DNA of 32,248 nucleotides from an archaeon. Its GTDB lineage: Archaea > Iainarchaeota > Iainarchaeia > Iainarchaeales > 1-14-0-10-31-34. Position numbers and translations under genes: made by a program. The stretch covers positions 1 to 32,248 of the forward strand of contig JBDRFE010000032.1 of NCBI GenBank assembly GCA_043819075.1, read 5' to 3'. Position 1 is the first letter of the stretch. The number at the start of each line of letters is the position of its first letter. Below, one piece after another: positions 2,461 to 9,121 of this stretch. The notes beneath the pieces are model-generated. The model was not told where the DNA came from and did no database searches. It saw only the letters and a program-made list of their open reading frames with translations.

Positions 2461-3525
2461 TTATGGATGTGAGCAGTTCTCTAAATCCATGAACTCGTAA
2501 CAGGATTTTTTTGCGTCGCCCGGCATTCCATTACATGTTTCCAGCAAACTTTCACAACTTGTTTCTTTGTTTCCTTGTATTTGTTCTTGAGTGAAAATAA
2601 TTTTAGTTGATATTGTTTGTTTTTCTTCTCCTTGACTTTCAATGTAAAATTTCAAGTTTCCTGTGAAGAGTTTAGCTTCTCTTATCAGCTCTATGCTTAA
2701 ATCACTTTTCAAAGTAACCCATAAAATTATTTCTTCGTTTGGTTGCATTACCATTTTATCGCCGTAATAATAACCCCCTTGTTCAATTTCTTGTGCATTT
2801 GTTGTAATGGATTCCGTGAACTCGTACCATCCGGCATCTGCTTCAAAGTCTTCAATGTACTGGGAAACTTTTATTAAGTCGCTTGAAATATTTTTTAATT
2901 TTAAGATTATTCTAATTGGTTTTTTGTTTCCACTTTCTGCTTCGTATTCCACGTTATTAAAGTTTAAAGTCATTTTTTCAAACTTGTGGGTTTGCCCTAA
3001 AATTAATTTTGATTTATCCGCCCACCCACAATCTAAGCTATTAATATCTGTTTCAGTTTTTTTAGTGCAGCCTTCTTTTTGGTCGCAGTAAAAAGTTTCT
3101 GTTATTTTTGTTGTTCCCACACATTTTTCTATGTTTTTTGAAGTGCATTCAGTTTCATTGCATTCTGCAATATACCCACAATAAATGCTGTTTTCATCTG
3201 TTTTTAATTCAGAAATGCATTCTTCATTTTTGCATGAATAATTGTATACTTGTTTTGTTGTTCCATTACATTCAAACCTATCTTTTTCATCGCAGTCAAA
3301 AATATTACATTTTTTGACGCATTCCCCTAAAAAACATTCTTTTCCTTCACCACAATTAGTTCCATCTTGAACTGCTTTAGAAATGCATTTTCCTGTTTCA
3401 CATGAATAGTTCATGCAAGGAGCATTGTCTTCTTTGCAATCATCATTAACAACACAGCCGTTTTGGGTGCAACCTAAAAAAAATAAAAACAATGTAATTA
3501 AAGCAAAAACTTTTTTCATTTTCAA
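2461..3525 (-). CDS. Cys-rich secreted lipoprotein with internal repeats and a probable Ig-like C-terminal domain
   Basis: Basic N-terminus, hydrophobic core and lipobox FLGC; two related ~40-aa Cys repeats (C...C.GTTK....Y.C....C.....D.NS..CG[YW]). Confidence 0.75.
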   Translation of the reverse strand: MKMKKVFALITLFLFFLGCTQNGCVVNDDCKEDNAPCMNYSCETGKCISKAVQDGTNCGEGKECFLGECVKKCNIFDCDEKDRFECNGTTKQVYNYSCKNEECISELKTDENSIYCGYIAECNETECTSKNIEKCVGTTKITETFYCDQKEGCTKKTETDINSLDCGWADKSKLILGQTHKFEKMTLNFNNVEYEAESGNKKPIRIILKLKNISSDLIKVSQYIEDFEADAGWYEFTESITTNAQEIEQGGYYYGDKMVMQPNEEIILWVTLKSDLSIELIREAKLFTGNLKFYIESQGEEKQTISTKIIFTQEQIQGNKETSCESLLETCNGMPGDAKKSCYEFMDLENCSHP

Positions 3526-3639
3526 TCATTTTTTTCAATTTTAACTAAATCAATATACTACTATCAAACAACAAAAGCATTATAAAACTTCTACAACAAT
3601 TCTACACTTTTATTTAAGTGACAATTCAGACACAAATAT

Positions 3640-3888
3640 ATGGACTGGCACGAAATAATTTTTATTAAAAGCAGCAAGAACAGGAGAGCAATATTAAAAG
3701 CACTGCAAAAAAAGCCAATGACCCCAACAGAATTATCAAAGGAGCTGAACAATCACAGGTCAACAATAAGTCAAAACTTAATAAAGCTGGAAAAGAAAAA
3801 AATAGTTGAATGCTTGACGCCAAAAAACAAAAACTATCGGGTCTACTGCATTACAGGAAAAGGGCAAAAGCTTCTGAAAAAAATCTAA
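3640..3888 (+). CDS. ArsR-like winged-helix transcription regulator
   Basis: SKNRRAILKAL...MTPTELSKEL...STISQNLIKLEKK.IVEC...YRVYCITGKG is a typical archaeal wHTH; TATA-like AAAAGCATTATAAAA upstream. Confidence 0.85.
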   Translation: MDWHEIIFIKSSKNRRAILKALQKKPMTPTELSKELNNHRSTISQNLIKLEKKKIVECLTPKNKNYRVYCITGKGQKLLKKI

Positions 3889-4069
3889 AACCTATTATTT
3901 GTTAAATTTACCTCTGCTTTTCTATTAACAGAAAAAAATTAGTTCCCTTTAGATGGCCGGTCAAGCCGACCACCCAAAAAGAATGTTCGTATGTCTATAA
4001 TACTGCGTTATAGTATAAAAACTTTCTTCTTTGGAATTCGAACTAATTTTTTCTTTTGGAGGTCTCAAT

Positions 4070-4231
4070 ATGAGAAATGCGACAAACATAAATATAGACG
4101 CAAGATCCTTCCCTGCAATTGCAATTGTTTTAGGATTTCTAATGCTGGTAGCAAACATTGTAACTGGGTGGGTCTTTGTTGGAATCGGTGCAGTAAGCCA
4201 AGGCATCTGGCTATTGACTACACGACGTTAA
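4070..4231 (+). CDS. 53-aa two-TM membrane protein
   Basis: GGAGGT SD before ATG 4070 (preferred over TTG 4031); two hydrophobic segments. Confidence 0.6.
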   Translation: MRNATNINIDARSFPAIAIVLGFLMLVANIVTGWVFVGIGAVSQGIWLLTTRR

Positions 4232-4279
4232 ATACAGTCAGAAAACTGATTCCTTAAAAAAACTAAAGTTGGCTGGAAG

Positions 4280-4723
4280 TCACTTTCCAGCTAACTTTGC
4301 TGCTTCTTCTATTCTGATTGCTAATTTTTCTGAATCCACATACTTGTAAACTTTGAACCCATTTTTTTCAATCTGTGAGGGAACGCCTCCCGGAAGATCA
4401 ACTTCACTTTTATTATTCTTAAGGTGGTGAATCTGAATTCCGAGAAGCCCATTGCCTCTTTCAAGAGATTTGTCAATTTCATAATTAATGTATTTTCTGC
4501 CTGCTGTTTTATTGCCCAAACAAATCACAGTGACTGATGTTCCTTCAAGTGCTTTGTCAATCATTCTTTTTATTTCTGCATCCCCTTTTTTAAGTGCTTC
4601 TTCCCACAACGAAGCATCTTTAAAACCCGCTGCGGCCACGCCTACAACATTATGGACATTCCTAATTTGATTAACTCTCCAAATATCCCTTTGATAATGA
4701 AAACTAAAAAACACATTTCTCAT
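4280..4723 (-). CDS. TIR-domain protein, Thoeris ThsB / DUF1863 (MTH538)-like
   Basis: VFFSFHYQRDIWRVNQIRN, D.SLWEE..KKGD..IKRMID, TSVTVICLG..TA.RKYINYEI with the catalytic Glu retained, GNGLLGIQIH. Confidence 0.9.
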   Translation of the reverse strand: MRNVFFSFHYQRDIWRVNQIRNVHNVVGVAAAGFKDASLWEEALKKGDAEIKRMIDKALEGTSVTVICLGNKTAGRKYINYEIDKSLERGNGLLGIQIHHLKNNKSEVDLPGGVPSQIEKNGFKVYKYVDSEKLAIRIEEAAKLAGK

Positions 4724-5167
4724 TTATACACCCCCAAGTTTAGAAAAATGCAAAACACCAAACAAATAAATAATTATTAATGCTCCAATGCCTCCATAAA
4801 ACAAAGCAAATGTTTTTGAAAACATAATAGTTTTTATTGAGTCCACTTTTCTTTCAAATCTTTTTGTACTCAAGTCAAGCATATGTTCCGAAGTTTTCAG
4901 TCTGTTTTCAATAACCCATTCATAAAGTTTTCTAAAAAGTTTTTCTTGCCTCAAATAATAAGCATCCACACACCAAAAAACCACCAAAGGAATAAAAGCA
5001 ATATAAACTTGCCAAATGTTTCCCTTCAATAACAAGGTTGCAACAACCAAAGTTATTGTCCATGACTTTATCTTGAATGAGTTTGAAGCCATACGATTTA
5101 TTATTCCTTGAATTGTGTCAACTTCTTTAAACAAGCATTCTTTCAGCATTCCCTTAGAATCTGTCAT
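4724..5167 (-). CDS. Small 3-TM membrane protein, putative effector of the TIR gene
   Basis: IQGIINRMASNSFKIKSW...FWCVDAYYLRQEKLFRKLY motifs; three hydrophobic segments; TAA directly abuts the TIR ATG with a GGGGGTG SD; start ATG 5167 (alternative TTG 5176). Confidence 0.8.
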   Translation of the reverse strand: MTDSKGMLKECLFKEVDTIQGIINRMASNSFKIKSWTITLVVATLLLKGNIWQVYIAFIPLVVFWCVDAYYLRQEKLFRKLYEWVIENRLKTSEHMLDLSTKRFERKVDSIKTIMFSKTFALFYGGIGALIIIYLFGVLHFSKLGGV

Positions 5168-5209
5168 ACTAATCAAATATAATGGGAAAAAGTGTTATTT
5201 TAAACTTTT

Positions 5210-6169: not shown

Positions 6170-7714
6170 TTATTCTTGGCTTGTTGTGTTTGAAGCAACA
6201 GTGACTTTTGGGCGTTGCTCAGCCAAAAAAGAACCGTCTGCATTACTTACATTCATTTTTGCGGTTTTTACTTGTTGTTCTGTCCAACCCCTTCTCTTTC
6301 CAGTTCTTTCTATTGCAATATAATATTTTTCCCTAAATGTTTTGTGTCTAAATTCATCTGAAGGAGAAGCCAGTAATGCAAAAACTTCTTTAGTGATTTC
6401 TTTCATTTCCTTTAAGTCTCTTAGCTCATCTGCTTTTTTTGCTAGTACTGCTTTATTTTGTTTTGTGATGTCTTCTGCACAATGAAAGCATTTTGTTTCA
6501 GAATTAAATTTTAAATTCCAGCATTCAAGACAAATTCCTGTTGGGGTATTAAAGTCTTCAAACTGGCTTATGTCTTTTCCTTTTTTTAAAGCGTCTTCTT
6601 TTGCTTTTTTTAATTTTACTGCTTTTTTAGAAAGATCAACATAGTTTCTTCTCAAAGAAACACTTCCCCTTGCTCTTCCTTGAATTGTATTAATTTCGTC
6701 TTCAGAACTTCCCTCAGACAACTGTTGGGTAGAACTTAGGCCTCTTAAAACATGAGCTCCATACAAAGCATTTTTTGCTTTTTCTGGTCTGTTAAGTTTA
6801 TCTAAAGGAATTGAATATAGCTTATTTGCTTTTCTGATATAATTTCTGAAAAGTGCTCTAAAGTCTCCATCTGTGAGTGAATTAAATAATCTTGATTTTT
6901 TTGATTTTGTTGGAAAAAACGGGGCATCTGGATTCCCTTGATACATTTTTTTTATTGTTTTCCAGTAATCCAAAAAGTCTTCAAAGCCATTTTCTATTCT
7001 AACTTCAGATGACTTTCCGCCTTTTTGTGGTTTAAATTTTATGTCAAAAGCTGTTGGATCAAGTTCTCTGTGCTCTTTTGATGCTTTTTCTTCATCTTCT
7101 TTTTTGTATCCCTCATATTTGGGGGCAACATCCCCAAACTTTAATCCAGTTATCTGTGACCCTCTGTGTCCAAAGTCAATTGCAAGTCGGAATAATATTA
7201 AATCTCTTTTGTTTCCATGCAATAAAGGGCCAACTGCAGACATAATCCAAATCATATCGTCATAGTCTTTGTCATCATATTTTGGTTCAACGTTTTTCAT
7301 GTTATTATCTATTTTTTTAATAATATTGCAGATTTGAGTCAACTTAAAATGGAGTTCTTGGTTATCTGCATCAAGCAGTTTACTTCTATAATAAGCATGA
7401 ATCAAGCGACAGACAGTTTTTTTTCCACCAATTTTTCTTTCTTGTCCATAACAGGTAGGGGAATTAATCATTTCTGTTAATAATTTTGTAAATTCACTTG
7501 GAAGTATGTCTGTTGTTTTTTTCCCCTTGAATGCCCCTGTTTCTGAATACGGGCGAATGAACATTTCAAAATTAGTTCCCCAACTAGCCTTCTTTTTGCT
7601 TTTCAAATAAGCAATAAAGTCTTCTTGGTTTTCTTTGGACAACGGTAGACTCCTAATAGTAGTAAAATAATCAACTGTCCCATCAGGATTGTAGGCATAT
7701 CTTTTTTCCTTCAT
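6170..7714 (-). CDS. Tyrosine recombinase/integrase with C-terminal Zn ribbon
   Basis: R box FGHRGSQI..L, K in PQKGG, HxxR (AHVLRG), catalytic Tyr (RRNYVDL), CLEC...CFHC; adjacent to a tRNA gene. Confidence 0.88.
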   Translation of the reverse strand: MKEKRYAYNPDGTVDYFTTIRSLPLSKENQEDFIAYLKSKKKASWGTNFEMFIRPYSETGAFKGKKTTDILPSEFTKLLTEMINSPTCYGQERKIGGKKTVCRLIHAYYRSKLLDADNQELHFKLTQICNIIKKIDNNMKNVEPKYDDKDYDDMIWIMSAVGPLLHGNKRDLILFRLAIDFGHRGSQITGLKFGDVAPKYEGYKKEDEEKASKEHRELDPTAFDIKFKPQKGGKSSEVRIENGFEDFLDYWKTIKKMYQGNPDAPFFPTKSKKSRLFNSLTDGDFRALFRNYIRKANKLYSIPLDKLNRPEKAKNALYGAHVLRGLSSTQQLSEGSSEDEINTIQGRARGSVSLRRNYVDLSKKAVKLKKAKEDALKKGKDISQFEDFNTPTGICLECWNLKFNSETKCFHCAEDITKQNKAVLAKKADELRDLKEMKEITKEVFALLASPSDEFRHKTFREKYYIAIERTGKRRGWTEQQVKTAKMNVSNADGSFLAEQRPKVTVASNTTSQE

Positions 7715-7824
7715 AAACCCCCGCCAATACTAGATTTATATGTATATCCGAATTTAAACGGATACTATTAAGGTTCATGTAATCTGCCTTAATAATAAAC
7801 GAACTAAGGTATTTAAGTGTTTCT

Positions 7825-7984
7825 CAACCGTCACGCTCGGTTGGTGTGCGGGCACTATCTTCGCTTTCAGCTCGATAGAGCTTGCTTCACTTAACATAAT
7901 CCTTTTTCTACTTTTTTGCCTAAAGTTTTTTTGTAAAGCCGCTTGACTGAGCGAAGCGAATGTCATGCTTCGTGCTCAAACGGC
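7825..7984 (+). other. GC-rich hairpin cluster between integrase and tRNA
   Basis: CAACCG/CGGTTG (7825-7843); GCGGGC-A-CTATC/GATAG-A-GCTTGC (7848-7885); TGAGCGAAGC/GCTTC-GT-GCTCA closed by GCCG/CGGC (7938-7984). Confidence 0.5.
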
Positions 7985-7993
7985 GAAACGTTT

Positions 7994-8066
7994 GGGGCCG
8001 TAGTCTAGCTTGGTAGGATTCAGCGTTCGGGACGCTGTGGCTTGGGTTCGAATCCCAACGGTCCCA
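7994..8066 (+). tRNA. tRNA-Pro(CGG), no intron, CCA not encoded
   Basis: Acceptor GGGGCCG/CGGTCCC + discriminator A; anticodon arm CAGCG-TTCGGGA-CGCTG; T arm TTGGG-TTCGAAT-CCCAA. Confidence 0.96.
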
Positions 8067-8146
8067 TTTCGCGATTTCGCTCGCGAGTGACGAAATATGT
8101 CGCCGTGTTTACAACACGGCAGTAATATTCAATTACTCAGACAGCT

Positions 8147-8344
8147 GGACTGAACAAGAGGAATTTATTCCTCGTTTTCGCAAGCCTGCCTGCAAAGGCT
8201 TAAAGTGAATGTCCTGCACTGGTGTCAAACAGCCTTTCACTAGGCTGGCGCGTGTGCACTGCGTAAAGCAGTGCTAGCACGACCTTGAGTCGTGCGCAAG
8301 TGCCAGCTGATTGAACAGCTGACTGACATTGGCAGTTGTTGTCC
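8147..8344 (+). ncRNA. Putative multi-branched structured RNA of unknown class
   Basis: Closing helices GGAC/GTCC and AACAA/TTGTT enclose six hairpins and two internal long-range helices; GC-rich in an AT-rich genome; no plausible ORF. Confidence 0.55.
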
Positions 8345-8426: not shown

Positions 8427-8840
8427 ATGAAAAGAGTTTATCTTGACGCAAATGTGTTTATTTCTGCACACAAAGAAGAAATGGGACGTAATGCCAGAGG
8501 CTTGTTCATTGAAGCAGAGTCATTTTTTAACAGAATGCAAAATAACTTCATTCTGATTTTATCAGAATTCTTTTTTGCAGAAGTCAAAAAACACAGTTAC
8601 CTAAGCATGGAAGAAGTGCTGAAATATTTTAATGACAGCCGGATTAAAACAGAGATAGTTGGGCTGAAAGAAAAATTACTGGTAAAAAAGTACTTGAAAA
8701 AAGGAATTCATTTTAGTGATGCACTCCACGCAGCAGCCGCAATAGAAAATAAATGCGACTGCATAGTTACTTTCAACACAAAAGATTTTGAAAAAATAAG
8801 CAAGGAAATTCTTGTTCTAGAACCAAATGAATTTTTCTAA
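8427..8840 (+). CDS. PIN-domain (VapC-like) protein
   Basis: VYLDANVF, E in AEVKK, DALHAAAA, IVTFNTKDF. Confidence 0.9.
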   Translation: MKRVYLDANVFISAHKEEMGRNARGLFIEAESFFNRMQNNFILILSEFFFAEVKKHSYLSMEEVLKYFNDSRIKTEIVGLKEKLLVKKYLKKGIHFSDALHAAAAIENKCDCIVTFNTKDFEKISKEILVLEPNEFF

Positions 8841-9121
8841 AGAAAACCTTTTTCTTTCATAAATTCAATTGCAAACTTGTCCCTTTCTTTTTTAGTTGGC
8901 ATTCTGCCTGTGTTGCCTCTTTTCTTTGATAATTCAGCAAGCTTTTTCATCCCTAGATGAATTTTTCTTAAACTTTCATCAGATTTCAGCATTTCCTCAA
9001 AATTCTTCCTGATGGCATCTTTCATAAACTCGCTTCTAGAAGAATACATCCCAGAAGAATCAATCAGCCTGTCAATAGCATCTACAAAACGTTCATCAAC
9101 TGCAACAGACAGCATTTTCAC
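8837..9121 (-). CDS. Ribbon-helix-helix (CopG/MetJ/NikR-like) protein, probable antitoxin
   Basis: MLSVAVDERFVDAIDRLI..G.YSSRSEFMKDAIR; GTG start with GGTGG SD. Confidence 0.85.
   Translation of the reverse strand: MKMLSVAVDERFVDAIDRLIDSSGMYSSRSEFMKDAIRKNFEEMLKSDESLRKIHLGMKKLAELSKKRGNTGRMPTKKERDKFAIEFMKEKGFL

Follow-up and report, generated by a model that had tools for sequence, protein, structure and literature searches.

An intact gene pair for a ThsB-type TIR protein and a small membrane protein, likely a type V Thoeris system, in a small-genome DPANN-type archaeon

The window analyzed here, a stretch of 32,248 nucleotides, belongs to a DPANN-type archaeon with a small genome (1.24 Mb, 90.6% complete). 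The named relatives of the NucS protein encoded in the window were Diapherotrites and Micrarchaeota proteins with 54–59% identity. Near the left end of the window, two adjacent genes were found on the minus strand (Table 1). The gene for a membrane protein lies 5' and the gene for a ThsB-type TIR protein lies 3', and the TAA stop codon of the former directly abuts the ATG of the latter. Both reading frames are intact, and an in-frame TTG at 5176 precedes the ATG of the membrane gene. Contigs from the sequencing runs of two other studies matched parts of both genes with zero differences, and one of them (4650–4896) covered the junction of the two genes.

The positions of Shine-Dalgarno (SD)-like and TATA-like words were counted over 692 crudely called genes of the host genome. 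SD-like words peaked at the distance at which GGGGGTG stands before the TIR start (162–224 per 5-nt bin compared to 6–32 elsewhere). The TTTAAA at -37 fell in the enriched zone of the genome between -40 and -26 (33–56 per bin compared to 0–26 elsewhere), and the transcript predicted from AAAAGTTTAAAA would be nearly leaderless. However, TATA-like words are frequent in this genome, at 1.85 per kb, and the gene upstream of the membrane gene ends only 42 nt away; therefore, a promoter belonging to the pair itself is regarded only as plausible. The sequence-only reading had described a two-gene unit with stop abutting start, an internal SD and its own BRE/TATA element. The first two descriptions held, and for the third the element is present in the enriched zone, while its role as the pair's own promoter was reduced to a plausible one.

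Table 1. Positions of the gene pair, its signals and the surrounding features in the window.
Feature	Position	Strand	Remark
Membrane protein gene, 147 aa	5167 (ATG)–4724	minus	PDC-M50A family; probable ThsF-type effector
ThsB TIR gene, 147 aa	4723–4280	minus	PDC-M50B / ThsB1
SD-like GGGGGTG	4729–4735	minus	within the end of the membrane gene, -12 to -6 of the TIR start
BRE/TATA-like AAAAGTTTAAAA	5198–5209	minus	5' of the membrane gene; TTTAAA starts at -37
Terminator-like inverted repeat	4256–4298	minus	13/14 pairs, then seven T; spans the TIR stop codon; read by eye
Glu82 codon of the TIR gene	4478–4480	minus	predicted catalytic residue
P4/D5-family primase-helicase	138–1469	plus	TIGR01613, 200.5 bits; context of the element
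Cysteine-rich lipoprotein-like protein, 354 aa	2461–3525	minus	further cargo gene of the element
Membrane-anchored protein, 306 aa	5210–6130	minus	N-terminal CxxC...CxxC; just upstream of the pair
Probable tyrosine integrase	6170–7714	minus	motif-based: R184, K228, H321-x-x-R324, Y358
tRNA-Pro(CGG)	7993–8067	plus	right edge of the element
PIN-domain gene and ribbon-helix-helix gene	8427–9121		just past the tRNA; convergent, ends overlapping

The TIR protein matched PF08937 (ThsB_TIR) with 83.9 bits against a Pfam cut-off of 21.2 and the PADLOC ThsB1 model PDLC00431 at 6e-50, and it was the sole ThsB_TIR match in the host genome. It was homologous to the ThsB of B. cereus MSX-D12 (PDB 6LHY/9B7D) over residues 2–114 (E 2e-24). 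Glu82 aligned with the Glu of 'WVRYE' in that ThsB, which we take to be the catalytic residue, and it was invariant in 60/60 labelled TIR sequences, the window's own among them. The earlier statement that the TIR keeps its catalytic Glu agrees with this alignment.

The hydrophobic segments of the membrane protein lie at about aa 35–48, 52–72 and 117–141, and hydropathy of the family peaked near aa 33–50, 53–70 and 117–143, the first peak being short. A small protein with three transmembrane segments, as first proposed, is consistent with these profiles. The AlphaFold2 model (pLDDT 82.8) consisted of a long helical hairpin (3–46, 51–89) and a C-terminal helix (118–144). Q20, R25, S30, K34, W36, D68, E75 and R79 were conserved in 90% or more of the 117 sequences compared. 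These polar residues lie on one flank of the hairpin and could form a putative pocket between subunits. A homotetramer prediction scored 0.19 against a mark of 0.42 and was counted neither for nor against. Foldseek against the PDB gave no match at E ≤ 0.001, VIA-align returned generic helical hairpins only (best Z 9.3, below the bar for helical proteins), and the family profile had no match among PDB sequences. Neither a Pfam scan nor that profile search revealed a recognizable ligand-binding domain. We infer that this membrane protein may form a pore and that the pore may be gated by a signal.

Two other identities were considered for the membrane protein and were dropped. The ESM Atlas search yielded 30 clusters without a name and one weak lead, 8xMP (PF24838); against an alignment of nine 8xMP sequences, hhalign scored 16.5%, and a literature search on 8xMP brought nothing relevant. 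A match to DUF4395 stayed below the cut-off and was regarded as one that generic membrane segments would give.

The gene pair sits between the primase-helicase and the integrase, and the integrase adjoins tRNA-Pro(CGG). Pfam Phage_integr_3 matched the integrase only at E 0.079, and the gene is present in a single copy in the genome. The integrase gene lies 5' of the tRNA-Pro gene, which is intact, and points away from it. The usual side of integration is the 3' end of the tRNA, and the integrase here is on the opposite side. BLAST queries made from the tRNA region or from the element found no attachment-site repeat, which is explained by the end of the contig, since the element runs off its left end at position 1. 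No clear excision joint was seen in the contigs aligned to the window. Because the element leaves the contig and such a repeat was not found with these queries, the term integrative element is used here as a putative designation, and the gene pair is probably its cargo. The membrane family occurred in 2/151 genomes of the host phylum and in 0/4 genomes of the same genus; the second copy in the phylum likewise precedes a ThsB.

The element carries two further cargo genes. The family-less 306-aa protein just upstream of the pair and the 354-aa protein had no Pfam match above the cut-off. The PIN-domain and ribbon-helix-helix genes past the tRNA are toxin-antitoxin-like, with an unusual orientation. 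Furthermore, tRNA genes in the window (7820–8150) and in at least 12 other contigs were flanked by partly palindromic, conserved repeats of 30–100 nt. One type lies just upstream and another just downstream of the tRNA, and the copies are 75–95% alike. They may represent REP-like elements, or else leader and trailer signals conserved around tRNAs.

The pair is already catalogued. In PADLOC-DB 2.0.0 the membrane protein is PDC-M50A (PDLC04684 at 1.3e-42 and three further M50A models) and the TIR protein is PDC-M50B (PDLC04688 at 5.8e-43). Both components of PDC-M50 were thus matched strongly by adjacent genes, and no difference from the catalogued system was found. PDC systems are predictions (Payne et al., bioRxiv 10.1101/2024.01.29.577857), and M50 is not named in the main text of that preprint. 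A literature search for 'PDC-M50' gave no match.

The neighborhoods of the membrane family were surveyed in the best 80 of 344 GTDB loci. A TIR gene or remnant lay beside the membrane gene in 52/80: a ThsB-clade TIR within 900 nt at 45 loci, another TIR recognized by Pfam at 6 more (47 neighbors scanned), and a frameshifted TIR remnant at 1. The 45 ThsB-clade loci had the gene order of the window in 37 cases, TIR genes on both sides in 4, an upstream TIR in 2 and a convergent TIR in 2. Among named plasmid or phage regions, 7 of the first 8 carried a TIR or ThsB annotation on a neighboring gene. Members of the family also adjoin restriction-modification and DISARM genes, and in Enterobacteriaceae the partners of the family are TIRs of other clades. 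The TIR and membrane families are coupled across bacteria and archaea. The sequence-only reading had described this membrane family as recurring next to DUF1863 genes and had proposed a co-occurrence analysis of the two families; the association is supported by the counts given here, and the coupling was also seen from the side of the TIR, as described below.

At 28/80 membrane-family loci no TIR was found adjacent, and 3 of these run to the end of a contig or close to it. When genomes of TIR-less loci were tested, 7/10 had no PF08937 match at all, in assemblies that are incomplete. About a third of the close membrane-family genes thus lack a TIR alongside, and several of them (three loci) adjoin type I restriction-modification genes. 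They represent either systems in decay or readers of a signal that originates elsewhere.

Several plasmid-borne relatives were also observed. Ten conjugative-type Campylobacter plasmid records carry a membrane gene with 54% identity to that of the window, and on the Campylobacter jejuni plasmid OQ553951.1 (locus 2974–4650) the membrane gene precedes a gene for a 378-aa TIR protein. On the Rhodococcus ruber plasmid NZ_CP129903.1 (locus 2545–3435), a HIT domain (aa 24–110) is fused to a PDC-M50A domain (aa 155–283), and the fusion gene stands directly after ThsB and before DISARM drmD. A Haladaptatus plasmid carries a separate HIT gene beside the TIR and M50A genes.

The relatives of the TIR protein were surveyed at 80 metagenome loci, the best of 242; identity to it was 63–75%, except for one identical copy of the window. 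The partner was the membrane family, counted within 900 nt, at 47 loci (one being the identical copy), a SIR2-STALD ThsA at 14, and neither at 19, many of which are short contigs. No locus carried both the membrane family and ThsA within the fetched flanks (0/80). The closest TIRs by identity included ThsA-linked ones (75, 75 and 74%). The membrane gene occupies the place taken by SIR2-SLOG ThsA beside TIRs that are 71–75% identical. The effector label changed 5 times on the FastTree tree of the TIRs, compared to at least 9 changes in shuffles, with supports near the window of 0.63 and 0.85 and with contigs that are partly redundant. The effector labels are clustered on the tree yet exchanged repeatedly. 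At 23 motif and active-site columns, ThsA-linked and membrane-linked TIRs had the same majority residue. A further ThsB1-type TIR locus had another non-ThsA partner, a 483-aa protein next to the TIR that matched PADLOC phospholipase effector models.

Since the TIR relatives stand beside the membrane family or ThsA and never beside both, these results suggest a swappable effector that reads 3'cADPR. 3'cADPR is the activator of SIR2-SLOG ThsA (Yirmiya et al., bioRxiv 10.64898/2025.12.03.692087); the window TIR may therefore make 3'cADPR, with the membrane protein as an alternative reader of it. From the ThsA-linked relatives, 3'cADPR would be the simplest reading of the TIR product.

Profiles for the effectors of other Thoeris types were searched in the host genome (90.6% complete). 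STALD, ThsA_Macro, SIR2_2 and Peptidase_C14 gave no match, with controls also silent for STALD and ThsA_Macro, and a SIR2-STALD profile built from eight ThsA proteins gave no match in the genome either. A type I SIR2-SLOG ThsA was thus found neither in the window nor in this genome, the element running off the contig end. For type II TM-Macro, the adjacent protein had no Macro match and PF20016 was not found in the genome, the control being silent. For type IV, with its caspase-like effector, PF00656 was not found in the genome with a positive control. The membrane protein had no SLATT match as for type VII, and 1/50 of its homologues matched SLATT_5 at E 0.0036. These profile searches agree with the earlier statement that no SIR2-SLOG, Macro-TM or caspase gene accompanies the pair, within the reach of the silent STALD and ThsA_Macro controls. 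Compared to type I, the window TIR is homologous to the type I ThsB of B. cereus MSX-D12 and the TIRs closest to it are ThsBs of type I. However, ThsA was found neither next to it nor in the genome, and a membrane protein takes the place of an NADase effector. As for type XI, which has a hydrolase effector and an Actinobacteria scaffold (bioRxiv 10.64898/2025.12.03.692087), the window protein lacks a HIT domain, and there is no HIT gene next to it.

The closest known system is type V Thoeris, a validated two-gene system of ThsB and ThsF (Yirmiya et al., bioRxiv 10.64898/2025.12.03.692087). According to the same preprint, ThsF has three predicted membrane helices and is annotated as DUF2270, type V TIRs fall in a cluster common to types I and IV, and the system occurs in 1.2% of genomes with enrichment in Bacteroidota. 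ThsF was activated by 3'cADPR in one system and was modelled as a heptameric channel with AF3, and 3'cADPR was non-toxic with a second type V system and with type IX (Yirmiya et al., bioRxiv 10.64898/2025.12.03.692087). The ligand may therefore differ between members. The window pair resembles type V in its two genes, a ThsB of the type I cluster, three predicted helices and possibly a remote likeness to DUF2270, and the frequency of its membrane family in Bacteroidota is similar. It differs in having no direct PF10028 match and in its archaeal host. Among the matches listed in a literature search for type V Thoeris, ThsF and DUF2270, only Yirmiya et al. (bioRxiv 10.64898/2025.12.03.692087) was relevant. 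Passages of two 2026 preprints, and for one of them the supplement, mention only types VI and VII, passages of PMC13069673 concern type IV, and a single general preprint was among the matches listed for Thoeris in DPANN.

The relation of the membrane family to DUF2270 was then compared by profile. Neither the window protein nor 50 homologues matched PF10028 with hmmscan. With hhalign, the membrane family matched DUF2270 at 42% and 55% (E 1.2e-4), compared to 0.2% for the reversed control and 5.5% in global mode; the match spans 38 columns with two membrane helices. One bridging protein was weakly matched by both profiles. Canonical DUF2270 was over the cut-off in 1/301 Bacteroidota and 9/201 genomes of a second phylum, and a ThsB-clade TIR was found at 0/12 canonical DUF2270 loci in 1.5-kb flanks. 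The PDC-M50A family occurred at E < 1e-8 in 7/301 Bacteroidota, the centre genome included, and adjoined 2/10 ThsB1 loci there. Because canonical DUF2270 is unlike ThsF in these samples, ThsF is by elimination probably the PDC-M50A family. Together with the match in description and the remote DUF2270 link, we hold this identity with ThsF of type V to be quite probable.

Another named system may also overlap with the family. TIR-IV of E. coli consists of two genes, both of which are required together with the TIR active site (Wang et al. 2024, PMC11350192). Its members were listed from Campylobacter jejuni, Priestia, Lactiplantibacillus, Levilactobacillus, Klebsiella and a Methanophagales archaeon (PMC11350192), and these are taxa in which the membrane family occurs. 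Since the taxa overlap, TIR-IV may be another name for some members of the family. No accession was shared by TIR-IV and the membrane family when at most four accessions per member were compared, and a literature search linking TIR-IV with DefenseFinder gave no match.

The reading we favor, and consider probable, is that the pair is a two-gene Thoeris-family antiviral system, PDC-M50 and likely type V Thoeris, with a signal-gated membrane effector. The ThsB TIR enzyme would detect infection and produce 3'cADPR from NAD+. Once bound by this signal, the small membrane protein would breach the membrane as an oligomer, and the infected cell would be stopped. For this archaeon we infer the 3'cADPR signal, the ring-shaped oligomer, the membrane damage and the antiviral activity. 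The proposal that a ThsB enzyme and a minimal membrane effector form antiviral cargo of an archaeal element was supported by the co-occurrence, the exchange with ThsA and the genomic context, while the pore and its gating keep the standing of a prediction. The novelty that had been claimed for the pair stood only in part: it is certainly PDC-M50 and probably the validated type V Thoeris.

The mechanism could be the same and the membrane family nevertheless not ThsF, being instead ThsJ of type IX or one of about 18 predicted effector types of Yirmiya et al. (bioRxiv 10.64898/2025.12.03.692087), or responding to a signal other than 3'cADPR. The missing PF10028 match and the weak profile link to DUF2270 are consistent with this, as are the membrane domain fused to HIT beside ThsB in Rhodococcus and the other TIR clades in Enterobacteriaceae. 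Furthermore, the type IX TIR likewise makes 3'cADPR, and the text neither describes ThsJ nor lists the effectors of Fig. 1C (bioRxiv 10.64898/2025.12.03.692087). We nevertheless consider it rather unlikely, given that the membrane family is the commonest partner of the type-I-like ThsB clade (47/80 in the best 80 of 242 loci), has three helices like the described ThsF, and takes a place beside ThsB where canonical DUF2270 was not seen. In a bolder form, PDC-M50A would be a separate, very widespread candidate Thoeris effector, a 147-aa membrane protein without a known ligand domain that reads 3'cADPR itself, swaps with SIR2-SLOG ThsA beside one TIR clade and, here, acts on the ether-lipid membrane of its DPANN host as cargo of an integrative element, which we regard as doubtful.

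It is very unlikely that the TIR itself is a toxic NADase, with the membrane protein as sensor or anchor and no diffusible signal. Such a TIR was named as a possibility for predicted types (Yirmiya et al., bioRxiv 10.64898/2025.12.03.692087), and the membrane protein contains no recognizable ligand-binding domain. However, TIRs with 71–75% identity serve SIR2-SLOG ThsA and share the majority residue at the 23 columns, and two TIRs around one membrane gene (4/80) mirror the layout of Thoeris systems with several sensors and one effector. The least credible account is that the intact pair is inactive or non-defensive cargo, such as an addiction module. The rarity of the membrane family in the host phylum would fit it, whereas the intact frames, the host-style SD, the TATA-like site and the relatives beside restriction-modification and DISARM genes argue against it.

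As a system, the pair favored here as type V Thoeris is already catalogued and probably validated, and it adds little in this respect. Its contribution is a copy with both frames intact from a DPANN-type archaeon of small genome size, where the membrane family is rare. Should the membrane family prove different from ThsF, it would constitute a large candidate class of effectors, with 3422 clusters at 50% identity. Furthermore, near-identical TIRs paired with either ThsA or the membrane protein provide a clean natural experiment. The signal of the membrane-linked systems is therefore predictable as 3'cADPR, and this prediction can be checked by cross-activation.
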